A stretch of 58,129 bases of DNA, the filler included, from Dugesia japonica (taxonomy: Eukaryota): assembly GCA_001938525.1 (NCBI GenBank). It is 6 parts of 6 records of this genome, joined end to end, with 100 filler letters (N's around TTAATTAATTAA, not from the genome) between each part and the next. Parts side by side here need not be neighbours in the genome. Positions count along the whole stretch, not along the records: positions 1 to 12,231 come from MQRL01302669.1; 5 more parts are not named here. The stretch is one strand, 5' to 3'. Position 1 is the first letter of the stretch. Every line of letters starts with the position of its first letter. The translations under genes and the position numbers were made by a program. The notes under the pieces are model-generated. The model did not search any database. It was not told where the DNA came from and saw only the letters and a list, made by a program, of their open reading frames with translations. Positions 43-57,044 of the stretch are shown here, one piece after another.

Positions 43-1039
43 TTAAAAAAAATTTTAAAATGCAGCTATGTTGAGTTTTAAAATTTATTTTTGGCTGATA
101 ATTTAAAAAGAAATTTATTAAAAATTCCAGGCACGTCATTTTCAGTGTATATATGTTTCATCTGAGTAGCATTTATTAATAAAAATTCTTAGCTACGTGA
201 CTTTTAGTGTATGTTTGTTGCAGCTGTGTTGCATTTGAATTTCATTTATTAAAATATATCTATCAAAAAACTTCAAAGAGAGGAGTCTTTGTGATATTTA
301 CTTAATAAAATATAACTATTAAAAATAAGAAAAGAGGGGAGTCTTTGTGGTATTTACATGATCAAATATTCAAATATTTAAATAAAATCTTTTCTTTACA
401 AGATGATATAAGACAGAACTTTTTTTCATAAAAAATCATATATGCTAGGTAATATTTTATAAAAAACATTAGTCATGCAATTTGTAATAAAGAATCTTAT
501 AAGTGATGCAATGTTTCTATAAAACATATTACTATTGACAACTGTCTATAACAAACATATTACTAGTGACAGCTTTCTATAAAAAACCTAAAAACTAATG
601 ACAATTGTCTATAAAAAATCTCATTAGCTGAGAATATTTCTTTACAAAATGATAAAAACATAGAACGTTTTTCATAAAAATCATAAATTCATGGAGCCGT
701 TCCATGTATCACTAATAAGTCTATAAATACAAACTTATAGGAAAATATTTTTATGATTTTTTAGGGTTAATGAGTATATTATTTACATAGTTAGCTTGTA
801 TTATTTACATAGCAACCGTGCAATTTAAGGATTATGAGTTTACATATGTTAATGAGTGTAAAGGTTTTATGAGTATATTATTTGTTTAGTTACCTTTATT
901 ATTTACATAGCAACCGTGTAATATAATGCTAATGAGGTTAATATTTATAAAGTAACCCTATATTTAAGGGTTTAACAGTATATTATTTACATATTAACCG
1001 TGTAATAAGAGGTCACCAGGCAAAATGCATGTTCATGAA
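43..1039 (+). repeat. Left terminal inverted repeat, with internal TATTATTTACATAG(CAACCGTG) repeats
   Basis: Reverse complement of ~10672-11380. For example 241-293 TTCATTTATTAAAATATATCTATCAAAAAACTTCAAAGAG pairs with ~11195-11245, and 983-1039 pairs with ~10672-10740. Confidence 0.9.
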
Positions 1040-1190
1040 ATTAATTATCATACATTGATTTATTCAAAATATTGTATTTGTTTACTTAGTATTATAAAAG
1101 ACCTTATTAATTTACTAATTATTAAAAAAATAAAAGAAAACAATTATCCAATAAAACATTTATTAATATAACATTTGTTTCTCATATTCT

Positions 1191-1695
1191 TCAGTCATCT
1201 TCAAAATTCTTTCTTTTAAGATTTCATGATGGTTCTTATTTTCATTAATAGGGAAATTCGATTGAAGTTCTATGATGAAATTGTTCATAACTTGAAACAT
1301 GTCTATTGTTTTTGTCTGCTATAAATATTTAAAATATTCATTCATCATCAACAGCATATATTCATGAAGTAATTCTGGTAAACTTTCATGTAATATTTCT
1401 AACACTAATTCTAAACAAAATGAAATAAAATATCATAAATTAAACTCTTACCATAATAATTTTCATAATTTTTGCCTTCAATTTCAGTATAACCACTATC
1501 ATCATCATTATCATCATCATCATCATGACATGTATCTTCCATCTTTTCATCTTCAAAAGTTTTTTCTTCATTAATATTGATTTTTTGGCTATCATTAGCT
1601 TCCATTATATTTTCTTTTCTTTCATGTTTAATGTCATTTTCAAGTCCTTTCTCTCCTTGGACAATGTTTTCAAAAATAATTTCACAAGTATTCAT
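1191..1695 (-). pseudogene. Element accessory gene A, acidic, two exons (intron 1411-1451)
   Basis: Removing the 41-nt GTAAGA...TTTAG intron joins ...YENYY to ELVLEILHESLPELLHEYML in frame; one internal stop. Homolog with the same intron at 25833-26398. Confidence 0.75.
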
Positions 1696-1704
1696 TTTAT
1701 AAAA

Positions 1705-1871
1705 AAGTGAATTTACTTTAAAAAAAAACACGTCTCATTTATATAAACCCGGTAACCAATCATATCAATCATAGTAAATATTAACAAATCATATCAATTA
1801 TAGTAAATATTAATCAAAATTAGTATCGCAACTAGTATATAAGCAAAGGTTTACATGAAAGTAATTACATT
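1705..1871. promoter_or_regulatory. Divergent promoter between genes A and B
   Basis: TATATAAA on minus (1738-1745), TATATAAG on plus (1836-1843), and two 29-nt AATCATATCAATYATAGTAAATATTAA repeats between them. Confidence 0.55.
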
Positions 1872-1883
1872 TAAAACTGAAAA

Positions 1884-2224
1884 ATGCAAGAGAATTAACT
1901 CACTAAAGAAATCGTGTCAACAATAACTGTGGAACTTGGAAAAATGACTGATTTCCAATTACAAGATCTTTCTTTTGAGAACAACGATTATCTATAACTT
2001 TAAAGTATTTATTTTTTATTTCATTATAAATTATTATTTTATTTTAGAAATCAGTTTCATTAAAAAGATCCTAATTTAGTTTGGTTATGTCTGGAATTTT
2101 TGAGAAGGATAGGAATATACTGGAAGCTATATTTGCAAGATTAAGCAGACAAATTGAAGTCAATGAAACTATTTATATAGGTTTTAAAGAACAAGATAAA
2201 AACAATTATGAAGACGACAGCTAA
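1884..2224 (+). pseudogene. Element accessory gene B, probable intron 2005-2047
   Basis: MQEN*LTKEIVSTITVELGK..., a GT..AG pyrimidine-rich spacer, then ...EKDRNILEAIFARLSRQIEV. Inverted homolog at 25224-25566. Several stops; the splice frame is not cleanly restored. Confidence 0.55.
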
Positions 2225-2529
2225 TATATGATTCGAGTGAAGATTAAAGGCTTCAAGAAGTCCATTAATTCAGTAGGAGTCATTTGGAAAGTTAAAAACA
2301 TAGAAAATAAGATCTAAAGTTGCTTAATTAATGTTTGCTTTATGTTATTTTTTATTGAAATAAATATTTAGGTAATAAATCTTGTTAATTTCTTTTAAAA
2401 CAAAACTTACTAAATAAAAACCTAATAAAAAACTAAATAAAAACAAACTAAAATAATAAAACAAACACTTAATAATAATAATACATTTTTTAATAATGAC
2501 AAAAATATTTTATAATTGCCATTATTGCG

Positions 2530-2937
2530 AGAATAATTATTCGACATAACCATTGATTGTTTTATAGAATTCATTTAATATAAAAGCTTTGATCACAATT
2601 TTAAAAAAGTCAATTCCTAACAAAGGCAAGGTCGAAATATCGAATTGTTATCCAATATCAATAAAAAACCAAACTTTTGATCAAAGATTTTACATTAAAT
2701 GAATTCGACAAAAATATTCATTATAATGATTAAGATCGTCTAGATTGTTCTCTATGTCTACCATCAGAATTAACTTTGCACATCCGAGAGCCGCGGTTGC
2801 CTTTCTTCGTTTAATAATCCCTGTTCTTCGTATATATCTGTGAGCATTCCTAAATTAAATTTATTAATAAACGTCAAACCTGTCTTACTAAAGTCCTCTT
2901 CCATTTTCTTCATTTTTCCAGTATTTGATGAATTCAT
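2530..2937 (-). pseudogene. Element accessory gene C, degenerate, function unknown
   Basis: ATG downstream of TATATATA. Coding-like run MNSSNTGKMKKMEEDFSKT... with stops and a frameshift. Confidence 0.35.
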
Positions 2938-3096
2938 TTTTAAAATTACAAGAAATAATAATGAAATGCATTATATATATGCATAATAAAAAACCACAAC
3001 GTATTATATTAATTATTTGAAATTTTAATATCTAAATTTAAATTGATATTTTTTGTACTTGCATTGTAAACGTTTAGCATCCGTGTTGCGAATTTT

Positions 3097-3573
3097 TTAA
3101 ATTTTATCAAGCAAATTGCACATATCTGAAGTAATGTTATTCACATATCCCTGAAAATACAAATTATTAAACCCTAGTGTCACTAGTTTTCCTGTTGAGA
3201 ACACATTTACACATAGAAGGTCATATTTTACAAGTCTTAGAGCAAGAAATAACTCTCGTTCGAACCAACAGTTGACTATTCTTGCTAATTTATACAAATT
3301 TATTGACACTCCCATGTTTACGAAAATTTTTAACGATTGTAATTGTACATTTTTTATATCATAGGGGTTTAAATCATTCGGTTTCAATAGTTTCTTACAA
3401 CCTATTATTCTACATTTTCCTGATCTGAAGAATAAAATTGTATATTTTTCACTTTTGACTTGGAATTGACATGATGTGCCTATAGGAAAGCTCGTTTTCT
3501 TTGTTACTTCTTGCGGCACTTCACCTCCGTAATTAATATTGGTTATCATAATTAATGAATTAATGAGGAACAT
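3097..3573 (-). CDS. TATA-box-binding-protein (TBP)-like protein, element-encoded (likely start ATG 3549)
   Basis: Two TBP repeats: TILFFRSGKCRIIGCK, and INLYKLA...FERELFLAL...CVNVFSTGKLVTLG. Canonical TBP has TALIFASGKMVCTGAK and YEPELFPGL...LIFVSGKIVITG. Confidence 0.85.
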   Translation of the reverse strand: MFLINSLIMITNINYGGEVPQEVTKKTSFPIGTSCQFQVKSEKYTILFFRSGKCRIIGCKKLLKPNDLNPYDIKNVQLQSLKIFVNMGVSINLYKLARIVNCWFERELFLALRLVKYDLLCVNVFSTGKLVTLGFNNLYFQGYVNNITSDMCNLLDKI

Positions 3574-3662
3574 TTGGGGTCTTGATGGATTTAATTTAAT
3601 TGATTCGTTAAAACAAATATAAACAATGTAATAAATTATAAATAAATTAAAGAAAAAACAAG

Positions 3663-4219
3663 ATGAAGAGATTAAGAAATGATGTAGTCTATCAAATGTT
3701 AGGAACTAGTAGTAGTGTGAAAAAGCAGATAAAGAGCTTGGATTGACTAAATCTGAATTTTGTAATATTAAAACGAAAATTATAAATGGTTTTGATACTA
3801 ATGGGAGCAAAAGATTAGGACGAGAAGATGTTATTGCTGTTGATGATTTGTATCAGGACGCAAATAAAGAAAAGGATTTCAATAATTTATTCACAAAAAT
3901 ATAGAAACATTGTAATTTTACTGTGATATTTATTACTCAAAATCTATTTCATCAAGGGGGTAGTCATAGAACCCGCAATTTAAACGTGCAATATTTGGTT
4001 CTATTCAAAAGCCCTAGAGATCAGACGGTCATTGATTTTCTAGCAACACAAGCATATTCTAATGATATACAATTTCGTATTGAACCATTTCAAGATGTCA
4101 CAGAAATACCACATGGATATTTATTTCTTAAGTTTACACAACAATGTCCAGATGATTATAGAGTAAAAACAGATATATTCAATTCAAATGGTATCACAAT
4201 ATATAAACAAAATACGTAA
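3663..4219 (+). pseudogene. A32/FtsK-HerA-like genome packaging ATPase
   Basis: Walker B VIAVDD and Polinton-type motifs IFITQNLF, NVQYLVLFKSPRD, PHGYLF. Walker A decayed; internal deletion and a stop. Confidence 0.88.
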
Positions 4220-4498
4220 TTTTTCATAATATTATAAAAAAATAACAAAATTTAAGAAATTTGTAGTTGATCAAGTAACTGATGGTGTTGTTAATCATCA
4301 AAAACTATCTTTTGAGAAGAAAAAGTATGGAAAAAAGAAGAAACCATCATATAGAATCAATCATGTAGAAACAATCATAGGAAACATCATATAAATAAGA
4401 AGAATCGAGTAAATAAAAGAAATATATTTAAAAAACTTGCAAAAAGAAATAGAAAGAAGCTGAGAATGATGAACAGATAAACGATTATAAACAAATAA

Positions 4499-4867
4499 AT
4501 GATATGTATTATTTTAATCAATACAAATGAAATTACAAAGAAGCATTCTGTTATTTTTACAGCTTTGATTAAATCATCAAAACCATTTAGAATGAGAATT
4601 TTACAATCATTCCCACCATTTGTTATAGATGATTTACTTGAAATTATTATAAATATTGTTCGTAGTAATGTAGATTGGAGTGCAGCCAAATAAAAAACAN
4701 NNNNNNNNNNNNNNNNNNNNNNNNNNNNNNNNNNNNNNNNNNNNNNNNNNNNNNNNNNNNNAATAGAAAATAAATGAGACGAGTAATGAATAATCAAAGT
4801 GGTGGTTTTTTAGCAGCATTGCTACGAATTGCATTAGCTGCATTAGGCTTAACTCATTTTAAATAAA
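4499..4867 (+). pseudogene. Small Polinton/adintovirus core-type protein ending QSGGFLAALL
   Basis: IDDLLEIIINIVRSNV and, after the N gap, NNQSGGFLAALLRIALAALG. This is the QxGGFL-amphipathic tail typical of Maverick small ORFs next to the ATPase. Confidence 0.6.
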
Positions 4868-4973
4868 CAATGGTAGACTTTATAACATCAATATTAATAA
4901 TTAACTCAAATGAACAATGGGTGGATTGCAATCATTACCAACTTTGACTTGAAATTTGAATAGAATTGTTGTA

Positions 4974-5365
4974 ATGGAAACAAAAATGAAGACAATATAG
5001 ACGGATCCAAAAAAACCCGGAGGTTTTCGAGGCATAGAAAAGTTGAGGAAAGCAGCTCAAAGAACAAAACGAAGGACAAAAAAGGAGTTATCTGGTCATC
5101 TAGTGTACAGTCTAAACAAGTCAATGTTGAAAAGATTTCCAACAAAAGCGTATAAAGCCTATGGTATTTATGATTTATGATAAATGTATCTAATTGAAAT
5201 GATTAATAAATTTTACAAGTATATATTTTGTCTTTTATCGTTGTGTTCAATAGATTTGCAAGAACTGTTCCATTTTAATCAAAGGGACTGAAATAATAAA
5301 CAATATTATGTCAAATGGAATGGATACAAAAACTAAGTTGGATAGTATCAACACAAATAAAATAA
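4974..5365 (+). pseudogene. Retroviral-like (c-)integrase with chromodomain, catalytic core largely deleted
   Basis: DPKKPGGFRGIEKL...YSLNK...KRFP...GIYDL...YKYI...VFNRFARTVP, then directly QYYVKWNGY...SWI (chromodomain). Confidence 0.82.
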
Positions 5366-5381
5366 CAAGACGAAAGTTTAG

Positions 5382-6513
5382 ATGGAATCAAATAACTTCT
5401 ATACACTTTTACCTAGTAATAGTAGTCCACTATTCATCCAAATAATACTGCTAGAAATGACATTGTTGATCTGCAAAACCCAATTTACATGTATAGTAGT
5501 TGGGAAGTAGCCTTGATGGATTTCACCTTAGTATATTCAGCCATGCCGATTTACAGTCCATCTAGGATTGAATATGAAATATTTACAATAATTGAAAAGG
5601 AACTAATACTTGATGTTAACAACAAAGAAATAATAAATAATAATAATAATAAATAATAATAAATAAATAAATAATAAAGTTCTTTTAACTGTTAATTCTC
5701 AAGGCAAATATAAAAATAACTAGGATACTGTTATACAATTATCAAAAGAAAACGTGTTATTCTTTACTAGTGATATTACATTTCACAGTTTATTCTTTGA
5801 TAGTCGGGAAACTTTAAAAAGATTTTCATATTTTAGCGGTGAATATGTAAGGGAAGATATTAAATTAATTTTTTATGCTAGTAAGAATTTTGAAGATAAA
5901 TCATTTGCTCTTGGCTTTGGTAAGTTTAAAAACGATGAGTCCATTGGAAAAAAAATTAAATATTATTTTCTGATTGTAACTAAACATTCTTTTCAATTTG
6001 AATCTGAATTGTATATAAAGAATTTAAATCAATTTTAAAAAGCACCTTCTATAGTTATTTAAAACTTTTAAATTAAATAAAGATGAACTATTTGAATTTA
6101 CATTAGCAAGTAGAACTAAAAGTGTTAAATTCGATAAAATATTAAAATTAAAACATTAGGATCAAAAGAATTGCAATATACTTGAATACAATTGAATGAT
6201 AAACAACTACTATTTAAAAGTAATAAGAAACCTAGAATATTAAAGTGTTATAATGAAATGTCCATCTATTGTAGTATTGTTAAGCCTATAGTTGTTGGTG
6301 ATGTTAATGTTCTTTTATTGAAAGCATTATGGGTAGAAGAACATGAGAATGATGAGGTAGTTTAATTAATTGTTGATCATACCATGTATTTACCTATTTC
6401 TTCATCATATATAAACAATATAGAAATATCAGTATACGTGATGATAGTAGACAACTAGTCAACTTTGCTGAAGACTCAAAAACTCATTTAACGTTACATT
6501 TTAGAAAAATTAA
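5382..6513 (+). pseudogene. Minor capsid protein (penton, single jelly roll)
   Basis: N-terminal FYTLLPSNSS..HPNNT...WEVAL; C-terminal IYCSIVKPIVVGD...YLPI...IEISIRDD...LTLHFRK. Frameshifts present. Confidence 0.85.
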
Positions 6514-6514
6514 T

Positions 6515-6960
6515 AAAGAATTCTGATATTGTATCATTGTACAGTACTAGTCAAGCAGGTGGAGAATTACCTTACTTTCTTGGAAAACAGTATGTATCTG
6601 GTTGGTTACGAACAAAAGGGAGATTTGCTTTGCCTATTCTGAGACGTATTGGTTCTTTTGGTATGAAAACAGCTCATGGTTTACTAGCTAATTGAAAATA
6701 CGGGAAAATACTAACCACATTGAAATCAAATGCATTAGCTGAACTTGGAAATGTAGTTTCTTCCTTATCTAATAGAGTTACCAGTATGATTCCAAAAGTA
6801 GCTGGTGTAGTACCATAAAGTATAACTAATAAAATACCATTTGAAATAACTAATATACTAACAAATCAATCTAAAGCAGAACCGACTAATAAAAAACGTA
6901 AAAAATCACATGCATAACGTATAAACAAATGAATGAGAGGACATGGAACAATATTTGAAA
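6515..6960 (+). pseudogene. Polinton core-type basic protein (QAGG motif)
   Basis: YSTSQAGGELPYFLGKQY.SGWLRT.GRFALPILRRIG, lying between minor and major capsid genes as in other Mavericks. Confidence 0.7.
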
Positions 6961-6964
6961 AATT

Positions 6965-7127
6965 ATTTTAGGTAAAACTGAATTATGTAATTTTGATCAA
7001 CCATCTCCACATGTTGTAATTGAAAATGGTACTTTCGAAGATGTCTTTCCTATGAATTCAATTTATGAATCGCAAAGCGATGTAGAGTTTTTTATAAATG
7101 GATCTCAAACAGAATATATGGATTTGA
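6965..7127 (+). pseudogene. Major capsid protein (double jelly roll), N-terminal piece
   Basis: KTELCNFDQPSPHVVIENGTFEDVFP...VEFFINGSQTEYMDL matches the Polinton MCP N-terminus (KSELDLF..P.TQ..IE...IEF.I.G...Y.DL). Confidence 0.8.
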
Positions 7128-7488
7128 AGTAGGTAGATAGTGGAGCATGTCCACTATAGAAAATCGTCCACAATCGAGCTCCCCTTCCCCTCGTCGGCAA
7201 TTGAAAAAGTGTGGACGAATTTTCAAAAATAAATTGAAATATTGGACGAATTTTTATAAATAAATTAAAATTATAGACGAATATTTAAAAATAAATTAAA
7301 AGTATGGACGAATTTTAAAAAAATTAAATTAATTAATAAAAAAAACAAAAAGTAGGGATAAATTATTAAAAATAAATTTAAAAAGTTTTACAAAATTAAA
7401 AGTGGTGCTTAATTTTTTCTGTGTATTTAGTTCAAATGTGTATTTAGAATTCAAATATGAAAAAGCAAGAAATTACTTCAAGCATGAG

Positions 7489-7815
7489 ATGATTTTCTTA
7501 AAGAAAACAATCAATTATACTTTTCAAGTAATATTTGATTTGCTAATTACTTTATTAATACTTTTTATTTAGGATCCAGTAAAAGTAAAGCCTTGTCTTT
7601 ATGATTTGTACATATCTGAAATCAGTAATAAAAATCAAAAGACTCTTAATGAATTATTCGTAAGAATTAATGAAAACATTAAAATTGAAGATGCAACATT
7701 TATTAAATCTAAAGAAGAAAATGTTCAAGAAAGTAAATCAATCATTACAGTTGAAATTATTAGTTATAAGAAAGTTAAATCAACTCAAAAGTGTGAAGAT
7801 AATTTTATTGAATAA
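7489..7815 (+). CDS. Small two-exon ORF in the nested fragment (intron 7528-7572), function unknown
   Basis: The 45-nt GTAATA...TTTAG intron joins MIFLKKTINYTFQ in frame to DPVKVKPCLYDLYISE. Confidence 0.45.
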
Positions 7816-8027
7816 ATATTAGTATAATTAATAGACTTATCTTAATAATTTCCAAGTTTTTTAATAACTTTTATAAAACGAGTATAAAACAGTAAAGTTT
7901 ATGTAATTTAATCCCATGTTATGCGGTGATCTAGTGACTGTTTTGTATAACATTTGGCCACTGAAATTATAAGATTAAAATGAATAATTTAAGCAATAAA
8001 GATTACTTAAAGTATTTGGATCTCTTT

Positions 8028-8700
8028 CTATTTTACATTCATGTTGTCGATTGCTAAAGCCTTTTGTTTGATATTCATTTGAACTTTATTTATTGATTCG
8101 GGACTTGAATTACTTAAATCATCAGTAAATTCTTTAATTAGTGCTTCTTTTTTGTTCTCATAAAACTCATTTACAACCGTTGACAATTTAAGTTCATGAA
8201 ATTTAACTAAATTATCCATTAGAAATGACATGTTTTCCAAAGAATCTGGATTAAATGTCAGTTTATCAATTAGTTCTAATCTTCCAAGTATTACCAGGCT
8301 ATCCAAGAATTGGATTTTAATAATAGCTTGTAGACCACTTTGTAATGTTACTTCTAATTTATGACGATAAATTATAATTTCATTGTTTGATATTTCCTCA
8401 ATTGCATCGATAAATGGGTCAAGAGAGAATAAATTTGTTAGATTATTGGCAACATCAACTTTACATTTGTTGAGATAATCTTCATAATTCAACGANNAAC
8501 AACCTTTAGTCTCTGAAATAATTTTTGAAATAAAAGTTCTTCCATGCCATTTCATGTATTTATCATCATCTTCAATAACAAATCTTATTGTATATCAAAT
8601 TAAAGTTACTTGATAAGGATTGTAAAGATTTGACTGATACGGATAATGCGGTTCCCAGTACCTATATGTTGCATACACTTTTTTAGGATGTAATTCTTTC
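8028..8700 (-). pseudogene. Unknown protein in the nested fragment
   Basis: 175-aa ORF that extends ~48 codons further upstream through one stop; no recognisable motif. Confidence 0.5.
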
Positions 8701-8724
8701 GTTAAAAAATTTCAAAATTGAATG

Positions 8725-9625
8725 TGGAAATGGATCTTATCTTCACAAAGCATTGATTGAAACTTTAATAAATTATAATGATGATAGTAAGAATATATGT
8801 CTTGCAACAATGGTATATGGATCAGAAGCAGATAGAAAAAAGTCTATTGCAAAATCAAAACAATTATCATTATGTTGTTCATTGCAACTTGATTTCATGG
8901 ATCAACCAAAATAACTTATTCCTGTTGTCAATGTTCATATTTCAGTGAAACAAAAAGATGCTAATATTTGTTAGGAATCTGCAGCCAATGCACCTAAATA
9001 TGTATTACTATATGCAAAATTAATGGTTAGACGTGTACGCATTGAACCGTCAGTACTTGCTGCTCATCAAATGGATCTAAATAAGCAAAATTCGGTTTAT
9101 CCAATAAGAACCAAAGAAATCGTAGCATTTGCAATTAGTAAAGATAGTTCATCGTTTTATAAGGAACAAATCTTTGGTGATCGTCGATTACCTACCTTTA
9201 TTTTGGTTACATTTCAAAGTGGTGAACAATATAATGGTAGCTATAAAAGCTCGAGTTCAACATTTCAAAATTTTGGTGCTGCTTTTGTTTCCTTGACGAA
9301 AACACTGATTGTCTAGAAATATATACTCAAGATTTTACAAATGATAATAATGCCACAACATATATGTAATCTACAGTACGAAATATAAAATATTTGGATA
9401 AGAATATGAATTGTGGAATAACACTTCAAGAATTTAAGGATAATTATCCCTTCTTTACATTTGTTCTCGCTCCAGAATTCGATATAAATCAGAGCCAAGG
9501 AACAAGGAAATTTGAGATTGGATATGAAGTTTGCTTAAGCTTTAACAATATCGGCATATGCTCTCATTTATGGAGTATTTGAAAAAAGAAATTCAGATTA
9601 AAAAAACGGAACAGTATTGGTGTAA
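8725..9625 (+). pseudogene. Major capsid protein, central and C-terminal part
   Basis: YLHKALIETLINY, LQLDFMDQPK*LIP, LMVRRVRIEPSVLAAH, YPIR, RLPTFILV, YNGSY, FFTFVLAP. Confidence 0.9.
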
Positions 9626-9628
9626 ACA

Positions 9629-9880
9629 ATGTTATGTATTCTTGAAATAATTGTAATAAAGTAAGAGTTATTGTTTAATTTATTGTTTAATTTATTAATT
9701 CTATTCAGATTGAACGCAGTACATCAATGTTACTTAAATCATCTTATTTTAGTAAACAATGCCTTAATCGTCCAAACTCATTCAACAAATCTATGTGAAG
9801 AACACTAGATAGCGGTTTACAATAAAAGAAGCAACATTACACATGGAATATTTATTTGCATGTATTTGTATTTTAAGAAA
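9629..9880 (+). pseudogene. Element accessory gene D (intron 9661-9708)
   Basis: ATG 3 nt after the MCP stop; 48-nt GTAAGA...TTCAG intron conserved at 27269-27316. Confidence 0.5.
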
Positions 9881-10220
9881 TAAATGTTTTATTGTCAAAC
9901 AGTCTTGTTCATTTTTCTTTTTAATAATACTTAGAAACAAAAGTACTCTATTTAAATAAACTTTTTATTATTTCATATTATTTATTTAATTTTGTGAACA
10001 TGTCATGAACATAAATTTGACATGACACGAGCATGCATTTACATTAGTACCTCATATTACATGGTTATTATGTAAATAAACCCTATATTACAAGGTAACT
10101 TTGTAAATAATATATTTATCAAACTATTTACTTATAAGTATTTTTATAAAAATAATGCAAGAAAGAAACAAAATTATTATTCAAATCTATTTATTAAACA
10201 ACAAAATAATAATAATTACA

Positions 10221-10469
10221 TTAGTTCCGACTAAACAAATAAAATATCACAATGGGTGTCTATAAAGTTACAGCAATAAATTTATTTTTCTTTTGGATCT
10301 TCAATTCTTCCTTAATTTTATCCATGAATATTGATCGGACAATGAGTTCAACATATTCATGTTTTCTCAATAGACCATTGTCGATCCTGCTTATGAATTG
10401 AATTTCGTCAACGGATCAACTGGTAATTGAATCTGTAATTTGTTTAATATCTCTTTCCATTTGGTTCAT
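10221..10469 (-). pseudogene. Element accessory gene E, small protein with C-terminal hydrophobic (TM-like) tail
   Basis: Homolog of ORF 27685-27903 (VDEIQF...YVELIVRSIF.DKIKEELK); two stops in this copy. Confidence 0.65.
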
Positions 10470-10493
10470 TTTTATAATGACTTTGAATTGTAA

Positions 10494-10562
10494 AAGTGAC
10501 TTATATTACGAAACCTGCTGTTTATATACTTGCGGCGATACACACATACTCGTTATTTGTTA
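10494..10562 (-). promoter_or_regulatory. Element promoter: CAAATAACGAGTATG-TGTATCGC-N-AGTATATAAA, with TCACTT initiator ~30 nt downstream
   Basis: The same block precedes non-homologous gene B (25580-25650; partial at 1821-1871). Confidence 0.6.
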
Positions 10563-10671
10563 GATTTTATTGATCGTTAGAGGTTTTTAAGGAAATGAAT
10601 GAATATTATTAATTTTAATTTTTATGATTAGGTGTATTTTGTTTTAAATGATATGATTTGTTATCTAAAAT

Positions 10672-11715
10672 ATTCATGAACATGACGCGAGCATGTATTG
10701 TGCATGGTGATCTCATATTAAATGGTTAATGTGTAAATAAAATACACACTATGTAAATAATGTAAACACAAAATATATATTACACGGTTACATTGTAAAT
10801 AATACACTCAAAATCCTTATAATACATGGTTGCTTTGTAAATAGTACAAGGTAACTATGAAAATAGTATACTCATTAACCCTATACAATCATAAAAATAT
10901 TTTTATATATAGACTTATTAGTTATATATGGAAAGGCTCCATGAATTTATGATTTTTATGAAAAAGGTTCTATGTTTTTATCATTTTGTAAAGAAATGTT
11001 CTCAGCTAATGAGATTTTTTATTAAAGATAGCATCGCTAATGAGATTTTTTATAGAAAAGTGTCACTAGTAATATGTTTTTTATAGAAAATTACCTAGCA
11101 TATATGATTTTTTATGAAAAAAGTTCTGTCTTTTATTACCTTGTAAAGAAAAGATTTTATTTGAGTATTTGAATATTTGATCATGTAAATACGACAAAGA
11201 CTCCCCTCTTTGAAGTTTTTTGATAGATATATTTTAATAAATGAAACTCAGATGCAACACAGTTGCAACACATATACATTGAAAATCACGTGCCTGATAT
11301 TTTGAATAAATTTTTTTTTAATTTTCTCCCAAAAAGAAATTTTAAAACTCAACATAGCCCCCATTTTGAATTTTTTAAATATATCCAATAGGTATGCAAC
11401 TCAGATGTAACTCAGATGCAACACATACAATGAAACTTACGTGCGTGGTAATTTTATATGGATTTTTATTGATATTTTTAATAAAAGCAATAAGTATGCA
11501 AAATGAAAAATACACACACCCAGGATTAAAAAAACTGATCCGATCAAAAAATAAGTTGACATGACCAAATACTTTTTATCCTAAAATTCTAGAAAAAAAA
11601 CTAGTCCAAAAATACTGGCACCAAAATTCTGGCACAATCGTAATGTGTTTCCAAGCCACCCTCTCCAAATTAGGACATAAATAAAATTGTGCCAGTGCGC
11701 TACTATCTACCTACT
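10672..11715 (-). repeat. Right terminal inverted repeat, ending in AGTAGGTAGATAGT (read on minus)
   Basis: Matches 43-1039 in inverse orientation. The last ~330 nt contain GTGCCAG repeats and a terminus shared with three other element ends in the window. Confidence 0.88.
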
Positions 11716-12331: not shown

Positions 12332-12792
12332 TTATTTGGATATGCTTGTCTTGCTAGAAAATCAACAACAGTTTGATCTCTTGGATTTTTGAATAAAACC
12401 AAATATTGTACGTTTGAATTATGGGTTCTATGACTACCTCCCTGAGGAAATAGATTTTGAGTCACATTACGATGTCTCTATATTTTTGTGAATAAATTAT
12501 TGAAATCCTTTTCTTTATTTGCCTCCTGATACAGATTATCAACAACAATAACATCATCTGGTCTTAATTTTTTGCTCCAATTAGAATCAAAACCATTTAT
12601 AATTTTCAGTTTAATATTACAAAATTCAGATTTAGTCAATCCACGCTCCTCATCTGCACCTCCATGCGATTATATGTTTTTAAATTTAGACTTGAATAAC
12701 TTCCATTTCAATAATTGACATACAAACAAAGTTTTCCTGCTACCACTAGGTCTAACAATTTGATAGACTGCATCACTTTTTAATCTCTCCAT
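12332..12792 (-). pseudogene. Packaging ATPase, another copy of the TBP-family element
   Basis: VYQIVRPSGSRKT (decayed Walker A), VIVVDN, RHRN, NVQYLVLFKNPRD; near-collinear with 3663-4060. Confidence 0.88.
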
Positions 12793-12849: not shown

Positions 12850-13060
12850 TGTAATAGGTATGCCACTCAGATGCAACTCATATGCAACACACATACATTA
12901 AAAATCACATGCCTAATAATTTAAGACTGCCAATCTCATGCAAAATATAGACTCCGCATGCAAATTATCAAGACTGTCCCATCTCATACATAAATATAAA
13001 GTCTTTTCAAAAGAAATATCATAAAATTAAATTAAATTAAAAATTTCCCCCGCGAAAAAA
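12850..13060. repeat. TIR-related fragment abutting the ATPase upstream region
   Basis: ATAGGTATGCCACTCAGATGCAACTC resembles 11389-11430. Confidence 0.55.
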
Positions 13061-25223: not shown

Positions 25224-25566
25224 GACTGTCGTCTTCATATTAATGTGCATTTAGTTCTTTAAAAACTACATAAATAGCGTCGCTGACTTCAATTTGTCTG
25301 CTTAATCTTGCAAACAAAGCTTCTATTATATTTCTATCCTTCTCGTGAATTCCAGATAGAAGCAGACTAAATTTAGATTTTTTTATTGAAACTGTTTTCC
25401 AAAATAAAATATTACTTTATAAAATGAAATAAAAAATAATTACTTTGAAGTCATAGATAATCGGAGTCTTCAAAAAGAACATCATATAATTCAACAAATC
25501 AGTAATTTTCCCCAGTTCCACATTTATTGTTGGTACGTTTTCTTTAGTGAGTTAGTTTTCTTGCAT
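25224..25566 (-). pseudogene. Accessory gene B (copy 2)
   Basis: Reverse-complement homolog of 1884-2224. Confidence 0.65.
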
Positions 25567-25832: not shown

Positions 25833-26398
25833 ATGAATGGTTTTGAAAANNATTTATNAAAATCCCAATCAAAGTGGAAGAGCTCTTGTTAACCAGAAAG
25901 GATTAGAAAATATAATTGAAGCCATTAATAACGGAACCATGAATAGTAATGAAGAAGAAATAAAAGAAGAAACAATCATTTAAGATGAACAAATACCGGA
26001 TGATGAAAAGAAAGAAGACACATGTCATGACAAAAAATTGTAAGATGCATACCCTGACATTGATGACGATGGTGTTCATTTTGAAAATATGGATGAAAAA
26101 TATGAAAATTATTATGGTAAGAGTTTAATTTATTATTACTTTATTTAATTTTCTTTTTTTAGAATTAGCGAAACAGATATTAAATAAAAGGTTTCCAGAA
26201 TTTCTTAATGAATGTATGCTGTTGACCAAGGATGAATTTTTTACATATATATTGAGAACAACAGCAATAGACATGGTTTTAATTAGGGACTATTTCATCC
26301 AGGAACTTCGATTTGATTTCCCGTCTAATGTAAAAAAGACACATTATGAGATCTCGAAGGAAAATATTCTAAAAATGGCTGAAGATTTTGTAAATTAA
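25833..26398 (+). pseudogene. Accessory gene A (copy 2), intron 26117-26162
   Basis: The 46-nt intron joins YENYY to ELAKQILNKRFPEFLNECMLL; exon 2 is fully open. Confidence 0.75.
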
Positions 26399-27233: not shown

Positions 27234-27684
27234 ACATTGTTATGTAATTTTGAAACANTTGCAATAAAGTAAGAGTTATTGTTTAGTTTATTGTTTAATT
27301 TATTAGTTCTATTCAGATTGAACGGAGTGCATCAAAGTTACTTGGATCGGCATATTTCACTAAACATTGCCTTAATCAACAATACTCATACATCAAATCT
27401 ATGTGGAGAACGTTAGACAGCTGTTTACAATAAAATTCGATATCAAGATCCATTTACTTTATTTACTGTTTATTAATAAGAAGCAACATTACAGATGGAA
27501 TATTTATTTGCATGTATTTGTAGTATACGAAATATATGTTTAATTGACCAAAAAAACTATTGCTCGTTTAATTTACCTAGACGAAAGAAAAACATTAATT
27601 TTGTGTAATCCTATGTTATAATAAATTATTGTATGGAAATAAGCAGAATTATTATTCAAATCTATTTATTAAATAATAATTATA

Positions 27685-31420: not shown

Positions 31421-33976
31421 AATTATATTTAAAAAGTATTTATTTTACATTTGGTAAACAAAACATATTTAATTCATTTCAATTAACTAGGATACTTATA
31501 AACAGTTAGTTTATTAAATATTTTTCGAATAGGATAGTTTTTTGAGAATCAAAAAATAATTGTCGAGAAATGCAAAGCATAGTATTTAAACAGTATAAAT
31601 TCTATTTCTACTTACAAAACCAATGTTGTATGAGTAAAGAACAATGTGACTTTGTGAAGAACCGAGTTCCTCCAAAGGTCTGTGGGTGTAAAAGACAACT
31701 CCTTCTTGTTCATGACTGATGATCGGCTTGAACACTGTTGATTATTAATACTGGTGTCATCGGGCTTAAAGCACCGGAACCATGATTGGACTTGTTAGGT
31801 AATTCTTCAATCGGTAATTCGTTTTCAAAATCACAACTATTTTTAGACAATTTATTTCAATTCACAAAGCTATCTCTATTATATAATTATATGTAAATAG
31901 ATCCATAAAAATATTTATTTACAATTTAATCGATTTCTATTGGCTGAATTAAATATTAATTTATAATTATTTTCTTATAGAACTGTAACATTTTCACTAC
32001 ATTCTTACCTTCAATATTACCAATTTTACGAGTCCCAGCGTTGCTGTAAACCCTTTATTCCAATAATGAAGTAACAGGAAAATAATTGAAATTTTTCGTC
32101 CATAAATTTACACAAATATTCCATTGAAAATAAAATATATAAATTAATTAATAAATCAGAACGATTTACTTTTTCCATAATTTCAATATGGTATCAAATA
32201 TCGTGGCGAAAAGTTTTGTATTAATGAAATAGAAAAATAAATTTCATGTATTTGAGAAAAGTTAATAACTTTTGACTCAACCTGATATATTGAAAGTAAT
32301 TTAGTTTTGTTTAGGAAAGTATTATTGACATTAATTGGTTTATAAAAATGTATTCTTTGTTATGGTTTTACTATTGTTTGCGATCTTTTATTAGATTTTC
32401 TATAATTATTTTTTACATGAAAATCTAAAGATAGCAGATTTATAATTTTTATAAAAGTGTATTACAATTTTAGTTTTAATTAAATATATAAAATATAAAT
32501 CAGCAAAGATCTTTAAATTCTTTAACAAATAGTTAAACAACTTACAGAACCCAACCAAAATCGAAAACAAACATAAAAAGGTAAAAAATNTGTAAGTGAA
32601 TACAAAAGAAAATTAGTATGAATTAATAACAAATGTACATCATTCCCAAAGAAATGAAATAAATTTAAAAAAGAACATAATTAATTCTCCCTAAAATTTT
32701 TAAAACAATCTGAATACTCTACAAAAAACCGGAAGAGGAAATAACTCAAAGTAATACTTCAAAATAATTTTGAAAATATATAAAAAATCTAAGAAAATTG
32801 TGGTAAAAAGATAATAAAAATCTAGAAAAACATTCAATAAAACTCCAAAATATGTAGGATTTCCTGCAAATTTTCTTCCCAGTAAAATAGTATAAAAGGA
32901 ACTAACAATTTGGTGAAAAACAACCACTTATTGAATAAAAAACTGTAAAGATTGTTTCATTCAGCAAAAATCTAATTTGACAGTCAACTTTGATATTTAA
33001 TTAATTGTTTGAATAACTCCAAAATCTAACCAGGAAGTTAGTCTCAATAATTGCCTTGACAATCAAATTCAAAATTTTATCCAGCAGGAAATTCTCAGGA
33101 TAATTGTTTCGACAATTAAGTTCACAACTTTATCTAACAATCCACTCTCGGAAGAATCACATTGACAATTAAATTTTCGAATTCACCCCGCCAGGCTGTT
33201 GTCTAAATAATTGCCCGGATAATCACGTCAGCATCAGAATAAATTATATCCCATTAGTAGTGAACTTTTCAGAAAAGAACAAATAATTGCAGTTCAATTA
33301 TCTATCAGAGCTACTCTACTCGAAGTAGATAATTATAATCATCGACCAGTCCGACAGTATATAAAGCCACTACTTGAGATTACAATACACATAATCTTTG
33401 GGAGACAATATTATCTCAATACCTAGTAAATCATACAGAAACATCCAGGACCAGATAAGACTCATCAAGTTATATCTTTCATTCCAGTAGTCAAACAAAT
33501 CTTCGAATTTCAATCAAGAAATCTCGTTGAGTTATATTTTTCAGTTAAACAGATTTTCGTTATTAAATAAATATCAAAATTATATTTTCCATCCAAGCAG
33601 ATATTTCTGCAACCGTACTCAATCAGTAAGACCATTCAATTATTGTATATTTTTATGACACATTTAATATAATATTAATTCAAAATGAGTTGTTTTCAAT
33701 TACAATAGGACCTAAAAGTTTACTACTAAAATCAATACAAATAACCTATGATCAAACTCATATTTTTCGCCTCCCTCGTGGACAATTATTATTTTTATTC
33801 TTATTCTTGTTATTATTATCATCAATATTATTAATACAATTATTATTATACTATTATACTAATACCATTCTTAGGATGATGACCTTTAACGTTAATATTC
33901 TTATTATTATGAGCAATGCCATTCTCGCTATGACCATCTAGTAGTAATAGTATTAATCTTATTATTAACCTTGATC

Positions 33977-40761: not shown

Positions 40762-43755
40762 TGCGATATTTTTAAATTATGATAATAATTAAGTATATCT
40801 AAATTCAAATTATTGAATCTTTAAAATTAAATATTCAAAATATTAAAATGAATTTTATTTGTTTTAATATTGATATTTTATGAAATATAATTTTAACTTG
40901 TTAAATATCTTATTATTTAATATTTAAATTTATATAACATGGCGTAAAATGAGCAGAAACCTTTCCTGCAGAAATTTATGTTTAAAAAAAAGAAAGTTAA
41001 GTGGTTCAAGTTCAGAAAGAACAATGAAAGCTCAGTCAATATTTGAGAACATCTAAAGATAAATAAAATTTAATCAATAAATTTATAAATTTATACGATG
41101 CTTGTAGCATCAACGCAGAATAGAGAATTACTATTTTTAGTAAATAAATTGACTACAACTTGATGAAAAAATAAAATGTGATCCAAGCTTTGTGAGTACG
41201 AAGGCAGATATCGATTAATTGGAAAAACATCTTAACAATTTACTATGTTGATACTTAAATTATAGAGGAGAAAAAATAACCGCTTTTGCTAAGCGTTTTC
41301 GTATGGAGAGCAGTGTTTTATCTGACAAGAAATACGAAATCATGGTAAAAGCATTTATTAATGTCTTGGGACCTAGAAAATTGGCAAATGCACTAAAAAT
41401 ATTCGAACCAAAATTATTGGAAAATGCTGCAGAAAGTATAAAAGATGAAGAAATTACAGATGACTACGAAACAAATGAAAATATATTATATAATATGCGC
41501 CAAGAGAGTGAAACTATAAAGAATTTGAAAATTGAAATAGAAAAGATAAATAATACAATTGCCGAACTAAAGAGACACAATTACAAATCTCGTGCACCAA
41601 ATGAGTTTAATAAAAATAACAATAATAATGCACAAAGTTCTGAAAAAACCCAAAACAAGATAAATGTGGGTAGACAAGAAACAAGAACATGCTTTACATG
41701 TGGTAAAAAAGTCCATATAGCTAGAAATTGCAATATCAAAAAAGGTTTCAGGTGTGGAGGTGACCATCTTAAAAGAAACTAAAAACAAACATGTTGCAGG
41801 GATACCAGTAAAAACTATGTTTGACACGGGCGCTGATTTGAATGTTATAAGCCAGAAGTAATATGTGCAAATAGTACAACAGAAGAATGTTTGAGGAAGA
41901 TACAATTAAATATATTTAAATTTGACCTGTAATGACAGCACACGTGTTTGAAATTATACCGAATATATTTTCACATCTATATTGGATTAAGAAGCATGAA
42001 AAAATACGAAATAATGGTGGATCCAACAAATAATGGAATAATAATACAGAATGTTAAGATTCTATTTATTTCAAAAACAGTTCTGCCTGAGTCAATAAAA
42101 AACTAACACCGAACGTGTTAATAAGTTGTAATACGGAATTCGGAAAAGAAGAGACTGATGGGATTTATAATAACGATCAATATTATAGAATTGCGGTATC
42201 TGAAAACGTAGATGTAAGTAGAATTGGTGAATATTTTATTAGAGGCATAAGAATGGACCACTCAAATCATAAAATTACTTATGACACGATTAAAGAATGG
42301 ATTTTTTCTAAAGATATAGAGAAAATGAACGTGCGGAAACGTTTAGTAACAGATGAAATTACAATCAATAATAATGGATACATATGGGTAAGAATATATA
42401 TGTTATAAGGCGGATGTAAAACTCTACACGCCGGAACTACAGTCGGTTATGTAGAAGAGCTTAATCAAAATAAAGGAAGGTTTAAAAAAGCATCACTTAG
42501 ATAATGTTTATCTGAAAAACAATAAACATAGGAAGAAATTACAGACAATATACTGCAGAAAATTAAAAATGATATGAAAGTTGAAAACAATTAGTACGAT
42601 ACGGTCAAAACATTAGTAATCCTTGAAAGGAACTAAGATGTATTTAGTCGATATAAGATGGATATGGGTAAAACTGATATTATTGAACGTAACATAGAAA
42701 CAATCAATAGCATAAAAATTACTTTTAAGCCACAAAGAATATCAAAAAGACTCAAAGAAGAAGTAGAACATATGGTAAAAGATTTGATAGACACCGGTGT
42801 TGTAAATCTGAGTAAGTCCCCATAGAACTTTCCAATTGTAGTGGTGAAAACAAAAGGGTGATAACCATATGTGTGTTGACTACATGGCACTGAATGCTAA
42901 AACAAACCCACCAATATTTCCAATACCATCATTAGATGAAATATTTGACTACTGGAGATAACTATTTTTTAACCCTAGATCTTTCGAGTGGATATCACCA
43001 AGTGCCGATAGCTAAAAAGATCAGACAAACCAGCATTCAGCACGAACTTTAGACAATACGAATTTACCAGAATGCCGTTTGGAATTTGCTCAGCACCAGC
43101 AACATTTCAGCAGCTTATGAATATTGCAAAATCAAAATTAGAAAAAGTGCGTAATATGTTAAGACGATGTTTTAATATTTTTTAAAACTGTAAAAGAGCA
43201 TAATTGAAGACAAGATCAAATATTTAGAAGAATAAGAGAAATTGGACTTAAATTAGCACAAAAATAAATGTAAATGTTTACAAGAAAGAATACAATATCT
43301 CGGGCATATAATAACTCAAAATGGAATCGCAACAGATCCTGATAAGATAATGACGTACCAAAAATGTGAGATTCCTCAATGTCGACAAGAACTTCAGACA
43401 TTTTTAGGGTTTTGTAATTACTATAGGTGATTCGTAAAGAATTATGCAAATTTATAAGAACCTCTCAGTTCGATGCTAAAGAAAGAAAACAAATAAAAAG
43501 AGCGATATCAGAAGACGTTATCCAGAGAGAATGACAAGGAATCCGAATCTTCAATATCGATACAGCAAACATAGGAATTTGATATATTTAAATTATGATA
43601 ATATTTAAATATATCTAAATTAAAATTATTGAATATTCAAATTTAAATATTCAAAATATTAAAATGAATTGGATTTGTTTTAATATTGCTATTTTATGAA
43701 ATATAATGTTAACTTGTTAAATATCTTATTATTTAATATCAACATTTATAAAACA
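40762..43755 (+). mobile_element. Internally deleted Ty3/gypsy element with paired 178-nt LTRs (40762-40939, 43578-43755)
   Basis: Direct repeats TG...CA, then TGGCG PBS-like site. Gag CFTCGKKVHIARNC, protease FDTGADLNVI, RT LDLSSGYHQ...RMPFG..SAPATFQ. No RNase H or integrase. Confidence 0.9.
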
Positions 43756-43765
43756 ATGACATTTT

Positions 43766-44997
43766 TTATGTCCCCATATCTGACATGCCTAACACTCTGG
43801 CTCGGTTCATTTTGCAACTTCCTTTATATTTTGTCTTCTGTTTACAACGATATGCAAGTTTTCGGATTTGATCACGATACCACTTGTGCCCTTTCGAATC
43901 AAAAAATGCTTTACAAGCAGCTTTAATCAAACGATTAAAATCGACGTTCACGTAAAAAAGGTTCCATAGACCAAAACAAGCCGTAATCAGAAGGCACCAA
44001 GTCTGGGCTGTACGGTGGATGAAACAAAACTTCAAGTCCATCGATTTTTTCTCTCTTTTGATTTTTTCTCTCTTTTTCTTCTCTTTGATTTTCTTTCCCG
44101 TGTGTGGTTTGGTATTATCGTATAGAAGAAGATCAGGTTTGTGCGAGATCAAATTCTGTTATTTTTCCCGCAAGATCTCATAAAGAATCTCAATTGCTCG
44201 CTGTACAAATCGGCATTTATAGCACGGCCTTTACAAATAAACTCAAAATGTAAAATGCCGTCAACATCCCACCAAACAGAAATAATGATTTTCTCGCTAA
44301 ATCGATTTGGGCTGGCAACTGGGGGTGCATTTTGACCATACAGAACCCAACGCTTGGATCCATCATGATTAACCAAAAAAACCCACTTTTCGTCACATGT
44401 CACTATCTGTTTCCAGAATCGGTCCTCGAACGGGTTTTCCGGAAACTGTCGACAAATTTCAACGCGTAGTGTGGCTTGGGACTTGGTCAGCACATATAGG
44501 TCCTACCTTAGCTTTTTATGGACAAAGTTGAATTTGTGCAGGTCTTTGACAACAGTCTGCTGCGAAACATCAATTTTTTCCGCCAAGTCGCGAGTGCTTG
44601 ACAATGGTTCATTTTCCGATGCGGCATACAAGTTTGTTTCTTTCATAACATATAGGCAAACGTAACGGGTCTGATCTGCAAGATTCATGTCGCCAGATTC
44701 AAAACTTTTAAAACATCTGGAAACTGTTGATTTGTTCACAGTTCTCTCTCTTTCAGCACCATTGATTTCTCTTGTAGCGTCTCTAGTCGGTAACCTTCTC
44801 TTACAACAATATCGTAGCAGGACTCTAAGTTCCATTTTGCCAAGTACCATTTAAAGTTTTAGGAATTAACGAGAATTTAAAACAATGTAAAAATGAAATT
44901 TAAAAAATAACCTATAAAATATGCTAAACATAAAATAAAATCAGGTAATAAAATTGGCAATATAATGTGAAGCAAAACATTTTGTTCAACTTAAAAT
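43766..44997 (-). mobile_element. Mariner (DD34D) transposon with frameshifted transposase 43820-44850
   Basis: HTH N-terminus, IVTCDEKW, YDNTKPH, PYSPDLVPSDY; TIR-like TTTTGTTCAACTTAA at ~44980-44995. Confidence 0.92.
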
Positions 44998-48350: not shown

Positions 48351-48969
48351 CTATAAATTGTGGTTTAATGTTTCCAACATTTACGTTAGGAATGTTTGTT
48401 ACAAACCCATGAATATGCTTGTTATATTTTAATATGAGTTCCTTAGTTTTTTGATCATCACATCCTTGAGAGATTAATAAAGGCCATAATGAACTATTAG
48501 AACGATATTTAATAATTTGTTTAATAGTTCTTTCGACTCCACTGCGATTGCAAGTTATTATTAAAACCGGTATGATTGGATTTTTTTTATTTAAAAATTC
48601 TTCAGCATCAGTATTTGTTAAATTATTATTTTTATATAAATCATTAGGACTTATTCTTAATCGTCTGCCAATCAAAAATAACAGAGCTACAATATCATTT
48701 CTTACGGCACGAAGTAGAGACTCACTTTCCGGAATCTAAAAATAATTATGAAACCATTAAAATATGTAAATTCTTACAAAATTTTCAAAAATCTCTTTAT
48801 AATAGACTAATTTTTGTCGAAATGTATTCAATTTTTTGTCTTGGTTGAAATCGGTTTTTTGATAAATATTTCCAACTTTAAAATAAAGAATAATAATAAC
48901 TATTTGTAAAATTACGAATCCTGAAAAAATAATTTTTATTTTTTCTTTATACGTACTATTAAATCTCAT
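48351..48969 (-). CDS. MGAT1: Host alpha-1,3-mannosyl-glycoprotein beta-1,2-N-acetylglucosaminyltransferase (GnT-I, GT13), exons 1-2 (intron 48736-48777)
   Basis: Type II TM anchor; IIPVLIITCNR...WPLLISQGC matches GnT-I VIPILVIACDR...FPIIVSQDC; phase-0 42-nt intron. Later exons not found on this contig. Confidence 0.85.
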
Positions 48970-56314: not shown

Positions 56315-56918
56315 TAATTTTTTTAAATCAAACTTTGGATTTTCAATTTTAGATTTTAGAATTATTTCATGAAATTCTCGAATCATAGATTTACTTGTAG
56401 AAATTTCTTCATCTGTTAAAATGTTATCATTCAAGGCCTTTTGTTGCAATATAAAAAGTTTATTTTTAACTGCCTCTAATTTTACAATAAGATTACTATA
56501 CTTCTTTTTCTTCTTTTGAATNNNNNNNNNNNNNNNNNNNNNNNNNNNNNNNNNNNNNNNNNNNNNNNNNNAAGGAAGAATTCAGTGCACCAGTAATTGG
56601 AATTGAAGATCCTATTCCAGTTATTATGGGAATACCAATTGTAGTTGCAAAAATTCCAATAGGAGTTGCAAAAATTACACCAACAATGGCCACGCCGGTT
56701 CCAATTATAATTTGAGCAACTTTTATTCCNNNNNNNNNNNNNNNNNNNNNNNNNNNNNATTTTCGATAATGTTTTATTTTATCATTTATGAAATATAAGT
56801 CATTTTCGAAATCTTTAATTCTTAAGGATGACAATTTACTTTTTAAGTCTTCAAGTGTATAAGAATTTATTTCTTGCTGATAATTTTTTAAATCCTGATA
56901 TAATATTTCGTCTGCCAT
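56306..56918 (-). CDS. GasderminX-like membrane protein of adintovirus/Polinton type
   Basis: Coiled N-terminus and Gly-rich double hydrophobic segment. Across the N gap: KKKKYSNLIVKLEAVKNKL...KALNDNILTDEE, open to a stop overlapping the polB stop. Confidence 0.6.
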
Positions 56919-57044
56919 TTTCTTTAGGAAAATTTTTCATAGTTCTTCTAATATTTTTTTTCTATCTGCTTCAAGACAAGCATGAAGAATAACAAGGTTG
57001 TTAATATAAATATTAGCTGGTAAAATTAAATGAAATTTATATAT

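Follow-up and report, generated by a model that had tools for sequence, protein, structure and literature searches.

Do the virus-type genes of Maverick/Polinton elements carry spliceosomal introns and, if so, which genes? The question is raised by a stretch of Dugesia japonica DNA (GenBank assembly GCA_001938525.1), 58,129 nucleotides (nt) long with filler and made of six parts joined end to end, referred to here as the window. A first-pass annotation of this DNA proposed short introns in genes A, B and D of a decayed virus-like element (element 1), in a second, diverged copy of it (copy 2), and in a nested open reading frame (ORF), N. We find that the window very probably contains decayed Maverick/Polinton copies in which the protease gene (D), a predicted single-stranded DNA-binding protein (SSB) gene (B and N), and likely gene A carry short GT-AG introns that the host spliceosome would remove.

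Intact vertebrate Mavericks are described in the accessible text of Barreat and Katzourakis 2021 (PMC8097293) as having no introns and intronless core ORFs, and the available part of Widen et al. (10.1101/2022.07.12.499685) describes nematode Mavericks with intronless core genes, including the protease, and intron-bearing wasp/krma cargo. Endogenous mavirus-like elements are given as intron-free in the excerpted text of PMC8547959, a large protist survey, according to its accessible portion, assumed no introns and hence used a prokaryotic gene caller (PMC10120064), and Polinton-like viruses are reported to have group I rather than spliceosomal introns (PMC12220804). Our literature search returned no report that the protease or SSB gene of a Maverick contains an intron, although repeat databases, subscription journals and supplements lay outside it and may hold one. 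The probable short host-type introns described here lie in virus-type genes, the core protease included; intron-bearing cargo was already known in nematode Mavericks.

Gene D and its probable intron at codon 2

One frame of gene D has 18 matches, directly after the capsid stop, in 67 metagenome loci collected by alignment of the capsid relatives. Peptidase_C5 is found in 10 of 11 members of this set of relatives (best E value 3.5e-6), which also weakly match the structures of adenain and of African swine fever virus (ASFV) S273R (E 0.008–0.03), and the protease profile matches the window at 9749–9889 and 27369–27467. By sequence similarity, gene D is thus identified as an adenovirus-type cysteine (maturation) protease. 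A minus-strand gene at the same place has a ratio of nonsynonymous to synonymous differences (pN/pS) of 0.48, against 0.46 in the plus frame, but finds no homolog in the 67 loci and was discarded as a shadow frame.

The start of the protease gene was surveyed in the 36 loci whose capsid match reached the C-terminal part; three were short of the flank, leaving 33. Thirteen have an ATG and two further bases, followed by a GT...AG intron of 37–47 nt in phase 2, within codon 2, and their second exon begins exactly 17 residues before a conserved motif; they represent 10 distinct intron sequences and approximately nine distinct elements. Eighteen are intronless, with an in-frame ATG 18–26 codons before the conserved motif (four of them showed no catalytic His motif), and in L012, one of the intronless loci, an uninterrupted protease N-terminus keeps the same register. 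The remaining two are L026, whose intron state is undecided, and L022, which has no protease motif. Without splicing, 10 of the 13 intron-bearing loci have no in-frame ATG, and in all 13 the unspliced reading from the protease ATG stops at codon 2 or 3. Phase 2 combined with a GTAA or GTGA donor is enough to produce this early stop, which need not reflect selection.

The two window copies preserve this arrangement in decayed form. In copy 1 the intron is at 9661–9698 (+; 38 nt, phase 2 by homology) and has lost its acceptor, and exon 2 at 9699–9889 (+) has a frame shift and a stop, with the catalytic-Cys region unmatched; in copy 2 the intron is at 27269–27306 (+; 38 nt, phase 2) and keeps GT...AG. 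Compared with exon 2 of the relatives, the copies align best when read from exactly 9699 and 27307 (scores of 19.5 and 25.9 at offset 0), and all 12 other offsets score negatively. The earlier proposal of a 48-nt intron in gene D therefore had the right donor, but homology places the acceptor at 9698 and 27306 instead of 9708 and 27316. The last 10 nt of the longer form align with exon residues of the relatives, its CAG being an exon codon, and we reject it as the ancestral form; in copy 1, position 9708 might function as a cryptic acceptor. Because both copies share a frame shift and a stop, the protease was probably dead before they split.

A quick capsid tree (43 rows, midpoint-rooted only, with L003, L009 and L015 omitted as near-duplicates) contains a clade with a Shimodaira–Hasegawa-like approximate likelihood ratio (SH-aLRT) support of 100 that holds the window piece, 10 database proteins, 10 intron-bearing loci, the intronless L012, and two rows of unknown intron state; 17 intronless and two unknown rows lie outside. 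Since all intron-bearing rows fall in one clade, and L012 within it is intronless, the simplest reading is a single gain of the protease intron near the base of the clade that includes this element, with at least one loss, in L012. With such a gain and loss in a core virion gene, the clade would be a small and manageable system for following how introns come and go in a DNA virus-like genome. Closer capsid relatives (ENA/Logan clusters of P0011, P0015, P0016 and P0018) are on contigs of up to 16 kb, and are probably near-complete elements.

Probable introns of genes B, N and A

Gene B has a 43-nt, phase-0 intron at 2005–2047 (+), followed by an exon 2 at 2048–2317 (+) that is broken by stops; in copy 2 the intron is at 25399–25443 (−; 45 nt), with its acceptor lost. 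ORF N has a 45-nt, phase-0 intron at 7528–7572 (+), at a codon boundary shared with the gene B intron, and an exon 2 of 80 codons, with no Met, at 7573–7815 (+). The second exons of B and N are 29% identical, with a score (67–78) reached in none of 5000 shuffles; for the first exons the score was reached by 15 of 5000. The alignments of both exons are gapless up to the splice sites and best at offset 0, tblastn gives an E value of 2e-5, and the DNA is 53% identical. On these comparisons B and N are homologous genes that belong to separate elements and share the codon boundary at which an intron lies. Because intron-like stretches with a loose donor, GTA[AT], occur at chance level (20 versus 17.1 in element 1), these two introns rest on homology and not on motif; that homology backs both of the positions first suggested.

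Probable B/N homologs are present in two near-complete relatives among the 67 loci, L004 and L008. The L004 protein runs on without a break at the B/N intron site, upstream of which its gene has a different candidate intron of 43 nt; the L008 gene has no candidate intron. The predicted model of the L004 protein has a local distance difference test score (pLDDT) of 88.5, and aligns with DUF2815, Enc34 SSB and T7 gp2.5 structures (1je5, 5odk and 4klk; ASFV CP312R, 8hw5) at Z 8.1–8.6, with root-mean-square deviations of 2.5–2.7 over 101–105 residues; the next unrelated row is at Z 5.7. In an L004/L008 profile search of approximately 5,600 pieces, four window or relative pieces were at E 7e-5 to 0.26. 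B and N, including B exon 2, thus probably encode SSBs with the oligonucleotide/oligosaccharide-binding (OB) fold of T7 gp2.5 and Enc34, as judged from the model. The likeness to the T7 gp2.5, Enc34 and DUF2815 proteins is one of fold; it differs from them in that identity is approximately 10%, the window genes are tied to L004 by weak sequence scores, and binding is predicted.

P0002 is the sole true B/N relative in two protein searches, and is a 71-residue call whose initial Met lies within exon 2; plain ORF calling therefore loses the first exon, as the first-pass annotation had anticipated in arguing that spliced genes of such elements are missed. By the same token, surveys that assume intron-free genes would score members of the intron-bearing clade as broken or miss their first exons. 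P0003–P0005 were considered as further relatives and set aside, their matches being sums of weak repeat hits. An Atlas search with N gave no match above 0.83, and two scans of viral contigs gave none. A second gene of the nested element, an ORF of 175 residues at 8028–8555 (−), has no homolog that we could find, and a 46-nt intron-like stretch is just downstream of it at 7961–8006 (−).

Gene A has an acidic exon 1 of 81 codons at 1452–1695 (−), a 41-nt, phase-1 intron at 1411–1451 (−), and an exon 2 at 1163–1410 (−); in copy 2 the intron is at 26117–26162 (+; 46 nt, phase 1). The proposal that both introns interrupt the same codon is borne out: they differ by a 5-nt indel, phase is kept despite this non-triplet difference in length, and the donor is identical to the host-type donor. 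The accompanying claim that intron removal restores the frame holds in part, in that the exon frames join arithmetically, but neither copy is open (one stop in the 81 exon-2 codons of copy 1, two in the last 66 exon-1 codons of copy 2). Read without splicing, the gene stops within 14 codons, and the first Met of exon 2 is codon 18. An acidic protein of L008 was examined as a possible homolog and rejected (E 4.6). We consider the gene A intron likely to be real.

All six of the intron stretches originally marked are in place, with GT...AG ends and 7–21% G+C, and several motif counts bear on them. GTAAGAGTT occurs four times in the window (the donors of both A and both D introns) against 0.42 expected, a number reached in none of 100 shuffles. 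The pattern GTAAGA, 36–50 T-rich nt and YAG, whose thresholds were set post hoc with the candidates already known, occurs five times (A1, A2, D1, D2 and a host intron) against 0.235, in none of 200 shuffles. That host intron, at 48736–48777 (−; 42 nt), begins with GTAAGA beside an exon matching GlcNAc-transferase I (E 1.5e-9). The sizes were said to match host introns of 42 and 63 nt; the 42-nt intron stands, and the nearest candidate to the other is 65 nt long (31944–32008, −). This GTAAGA...CAG candidate is in a probable host gene at 31560–32260 (−). GT...AG with a host-type donor and a T-rich 3′ part is found in A1, A2, B1, N, D2 and the 13 relative loci, with the acceptor lost in B2 and D1. 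The exons continue one protein in register in the protease and in B/N; for gene A, continuity is a matter of phase arithmetic.

A further expectation, codon-position bias in the exons, was not confirmed. Between the window copies the A exons have pN/pS values of 0.62 and 0.78 and exon 2 of B has 0.68, third positions show no excess, and introns differ less than exons (8% versus 20%). In columns containing G or C the rate of difference is 0.40 in introns and exons alike, and in AT-only columns it is 0.02 in introns and 0.08 in exons, so much of the gap between introns and exons is a matter of composition. The window copies are dead and have decayed almost neutrally, and presumably they no longer make these proteins. 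Given such decay, and introns more alike than exons, the agreement between copies shows only that the introns were present in a common mobile ancestor.

Splicing and alternative readings

We infer that the elements would be transcribed in the nucleus by host polymerase II, that the major spliceosome would cut the introns out in keeping with a host preference for short ones, and that the introns were inherited with active mobile elements and not added after insertion. The proposal that introns of spliceosomal type are carried with the element gains support from homology, in the shared positions in the protease and in B/N. Because the protease intron splits codon 2, such that the unspliced message ends at codon 2 or 3 from that start, protease production would need splicing; capsid maturation, and probably SSB synthesis, would then depend on it also. 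Introns in core genes point to nuclear transcription by the host.

Several observations weigh against this account. Many of the 13 intron-bearing loci may come from few samples, three of them have another in-frame ATG without splicing, and neither D copy in the window has an ATG directly before the donor, unlike the relatives. The capsid tree was made by a quick method, and the window row fills 27% of its columns. No gene A homolog was found in a protein search (155 candidates), in Atlas, or in the 67 loci. Default two-sequence BLASTP gave no alignment of N with exon 2 of B in copy 2, the link of B/N to L004 and L008 is modest (a two-member profile gives E 7e-5 for P0002, 0.028 for B2 and 0.12 for N), and Foldseek with the L004 model gave nothing under E 0.001, the top rows being the same SSB proteins at E 0.12. 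Two RNA runs and two contig sets were aligned to the window, where the family is very repetitive. The RNA runs were oligo-dT libraries of which approximately one quarter each was read, and 4,453 and 763 reads were placed, on both strands and mostly less than 90% alike. Depth at the intron bins is 0–16 (approximately 3.5 and 0 at A, 14.5 and 3.6 at B, 16 and 9 at N, and 2 and 0.4 after D), and none of the 15 joints listed (611 more exist) fits any intron candidate, at low depth in a repetitive family. At position 7562, inside intron N, the depth is 20 and 5 in the two runs, from unspliced or misplaced reads. In planarians, knockdown of smedwi-2 derepresses Polintons (PMC8532177).

Adenoviruses time virion assembly through the host spliceosome. 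In the intron-bearing relatives the protease start codon abuts the capsid stop, and the intron might be a kept control point, at which splicing would gate the timing and amount of maturation protease. We think this rather improbable, and a regulatory role is speculation. If true, an animal virus-like element would be timing its assembly via the host spliceosome, and this would favor production of virions in the nucleus from host-made transcripts.

Far less probable than our main account is that introns occur only in accessory arm genes, as captured host-like cargo, with an intron-free viral core as in nematode Mavericks, which was in essence the first-pass view. The capsid does conform: residues 68–406 form a single alignment without intron-sized excess, and 29 of the 32 translated capsid matches in relatives have neither a stop nor such an excess (three are broken). 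The retained ATPase part is contiguous, and in both L004 and L008 a single ORF encodes the ATPase and another the integrase. The claim that capsid, ATPase and integrase are intron-free accordingly stands for the major capsid gene and for what is retained of the ATPase, but only the first ~90 residues of the integrase are in the window. Gene A, moreover, is an arm gene with a likely intron and no known relatives, two candidate introns of L005 are in genes of no assigned function, and a cargo-only pattern is what the accessible text of Widen et al. describes. However, gene D is a core protease, which contradicts a restriction to accessory genes, although gene A alone could still fit it; B/N is probably a replication protein, the predicted SSB; and a mechanical intron scan of 13 loci found candidates within the 5′ portion of the polymerase gene in both L004 and L012 as well as in the two L005 genes. 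Nematode Mavericks, as far as that text goes, are alike in having intron-containing genes near the left terminal repeat and intronless capsid and ATPase genes, and differ in that the intron-bearing genes are high-GC, host-derived cargo, whereas here the introns are in virus-type genes.

Less probable again is that no introns are involved and the stretches represent AT-rich spacer or decayed sequence, with genes starting downstream at internal or non-ATG codons and GT and AG present by chance. Loose intron-like motifs are indeed as frequent as in shuffles, and this reading would agree with the lack of a junction among the 15 RNA joints listed and with the three relatives that have an in-frame ATG without splicing. 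Against it, GT...AG and exact register are kept over approximately nine diverged elements while lengths range freely between 37 and 47 nt, the same two codons are filled in the intronless homologs, and B and N share a boundary at approximately 30% protein identity.

Addition of the introns after integration by a host introner (an intron-generating transposon) is the least probable explanation, for although the A and D introns have their first 9 nt in common and introners are reported, in the available part of PMC11957031, in dinoflagellate Polinton-like elements, diverged elements that were inserted independently have the intron at the same position, the introns of the relatives are unlike one another in sequence and in length, and a shared donor is expected from a host consensus seen also in the GTAAGA host intron. 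Those dinoflagellate Maverick-Polinton-like elements (Gozashti and Corbett-Detig, PMC11957031) resemble the present ones, as far as the accessible text describes them, in having spliceosomal introns inside Polinton-like elements, and differ in that theirs are mostly young secondary transposon insertions, whereas here the position is old and common to diverged elements. Punuivirus (PMC13692296, in its accessible part) is likewise a DNA virus in integrated form, some of whose genes contain spliceosomal introns, but it is an algal giant virus, with introns enriched in latency genes, and no Maverick.

Architecture of element 1 and its neighbors

The window is eukaryotic, AT-rich (approximately 18–37% G+C per kb), interrupted by assembly gaps and rich in decayed repeats. 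Element 1 (175–11715) is a decayed Maverick/Polinton derivative with long terminal inverted repeats, in which 175–993 pairs with 10750–11311 and the arms are 72–94% complementary; its left end presumably lies upstream of the window start. A 14-nt terminal motif occurs at three sites (7128 +, 11702–11715 − and 47584 +) against 0.04 expected. The element contains A, B, a TBP-like gene, an ATPase, an integrase fragment, a probable minor capsid gene, the major capsid gene, D and E. The TBP-like gene is a single ORF at 3097–3573 (−; Pfam PF00352, E 1.6e-9) and is kept in L004, L005, L008, L024, L027, L029 and L037, including loci outside the intron-bearing clade. The packaging ATPase is retained at 3719–4216 (+) without its N-terminal part; it is A32-like (Pox_A32, E 5.2e-6 in L008, to which the window part is 64% identical). 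The integrase N-terminal fragment, of ~90 residues, is at 5004–5249 (+; fragment match E 2e-16), and the L008 integrase is retroviral-like, with rve (E 1.4e-12) and a chromo domain. A broken gene at 5394–6502 (+), similar to genes of the relatives, is probably, from its position, the minor capsid gene. In L008, tandem paralogs of it are at 5610–6674 and 6605–7687.

The major capsid gene is in two pieces, 6962–7126 (+; residues 1–55 of the relative P0006) and 8612–9625 (+; residues 68–406). The window piece has 14 protein matches at 54–78% identity, 13 of them of 406–409 residues, and the predicted model of P0006 (77% identical) is a double jelly-roll that resembles capsids of iridovirus, Paramecium bursaria chlorella virus 1 (PBCV-1), Sputnik and mavirus (best E 5e-15). 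A second, related element is nested in the capsid gene, with its left end at approximately 7128–8575 (+) and the same terminal motif; its right end was not found in the window. In copy 2 the A/B block also lies within the capsid gene. The right end of element 1 is itself within a third copy (ATPase 12334–12786), as a related left end is within the element 1 capsid gene. Elements of this family insert into one another.

L004 and L008 have an integrase, an A32 ATPase, a TBP-like gene, and a long polymerase-like ORF that we take to be the polymerase from its motifs, Pfam giving it no name. No polymerase was found in element 1: the L004 polymerase-like protein matches the window solely at 53048–56056, in a separate element. 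Since it has no match inside element 1, the latter is a decayed, polymerase-less derivative of the Maverick/Polinton lineage and not a complete Maverick. Vertebrate Mavericks, in the accessible text of PMC8097293, are alike in their core set of polymerase (absent from the window element), ATPase, integrase, minor and major capsid and protease genes, and in a protease adjoining the major capsid gene, terminal inverted repeats, ends starting with AGT, and mostly decayed copies. They differ in having no introns, whereas here intact relatives have a protease intron in common; the present lineage also has TBP-like and probable gp2.5-type genes.

Candidate introns in the polymerase N-terminal extension are at 12562–12610 and 12865–12909 (−) of L004 and, several in number, within 2543–3170 (−) of L012, though the latter has no protease intron. 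Gene E, at 10302–10463 (−), has a homolog in L008; a candidate intron there (10231–10271) is absent from copy 2 and was dropped. A Pfam scan of window fragments named only TBP and zinc fingers. The separate Polinton-like element, at 52349–56134 (+), has a polymerase-like gene that begins with C2H2 zinc fingers (Pfam zf-C2H2) and is distantly similar to the L004 polymerase; repeats of 62–84 nt precede it, and convergent ORFs at 56496–58112 follow. L008 also has a ubiquitin-conjugating enzyme gene (PF00179, E 1.7e-12) at 222–722 (−), near the left contig end. Elsewhere in the window, 41303–43500 (+) is presumably a decayed Gypsy-like retroelement, and 44503–44850 (−) presumably holds pieces of a mariner-like transposase.

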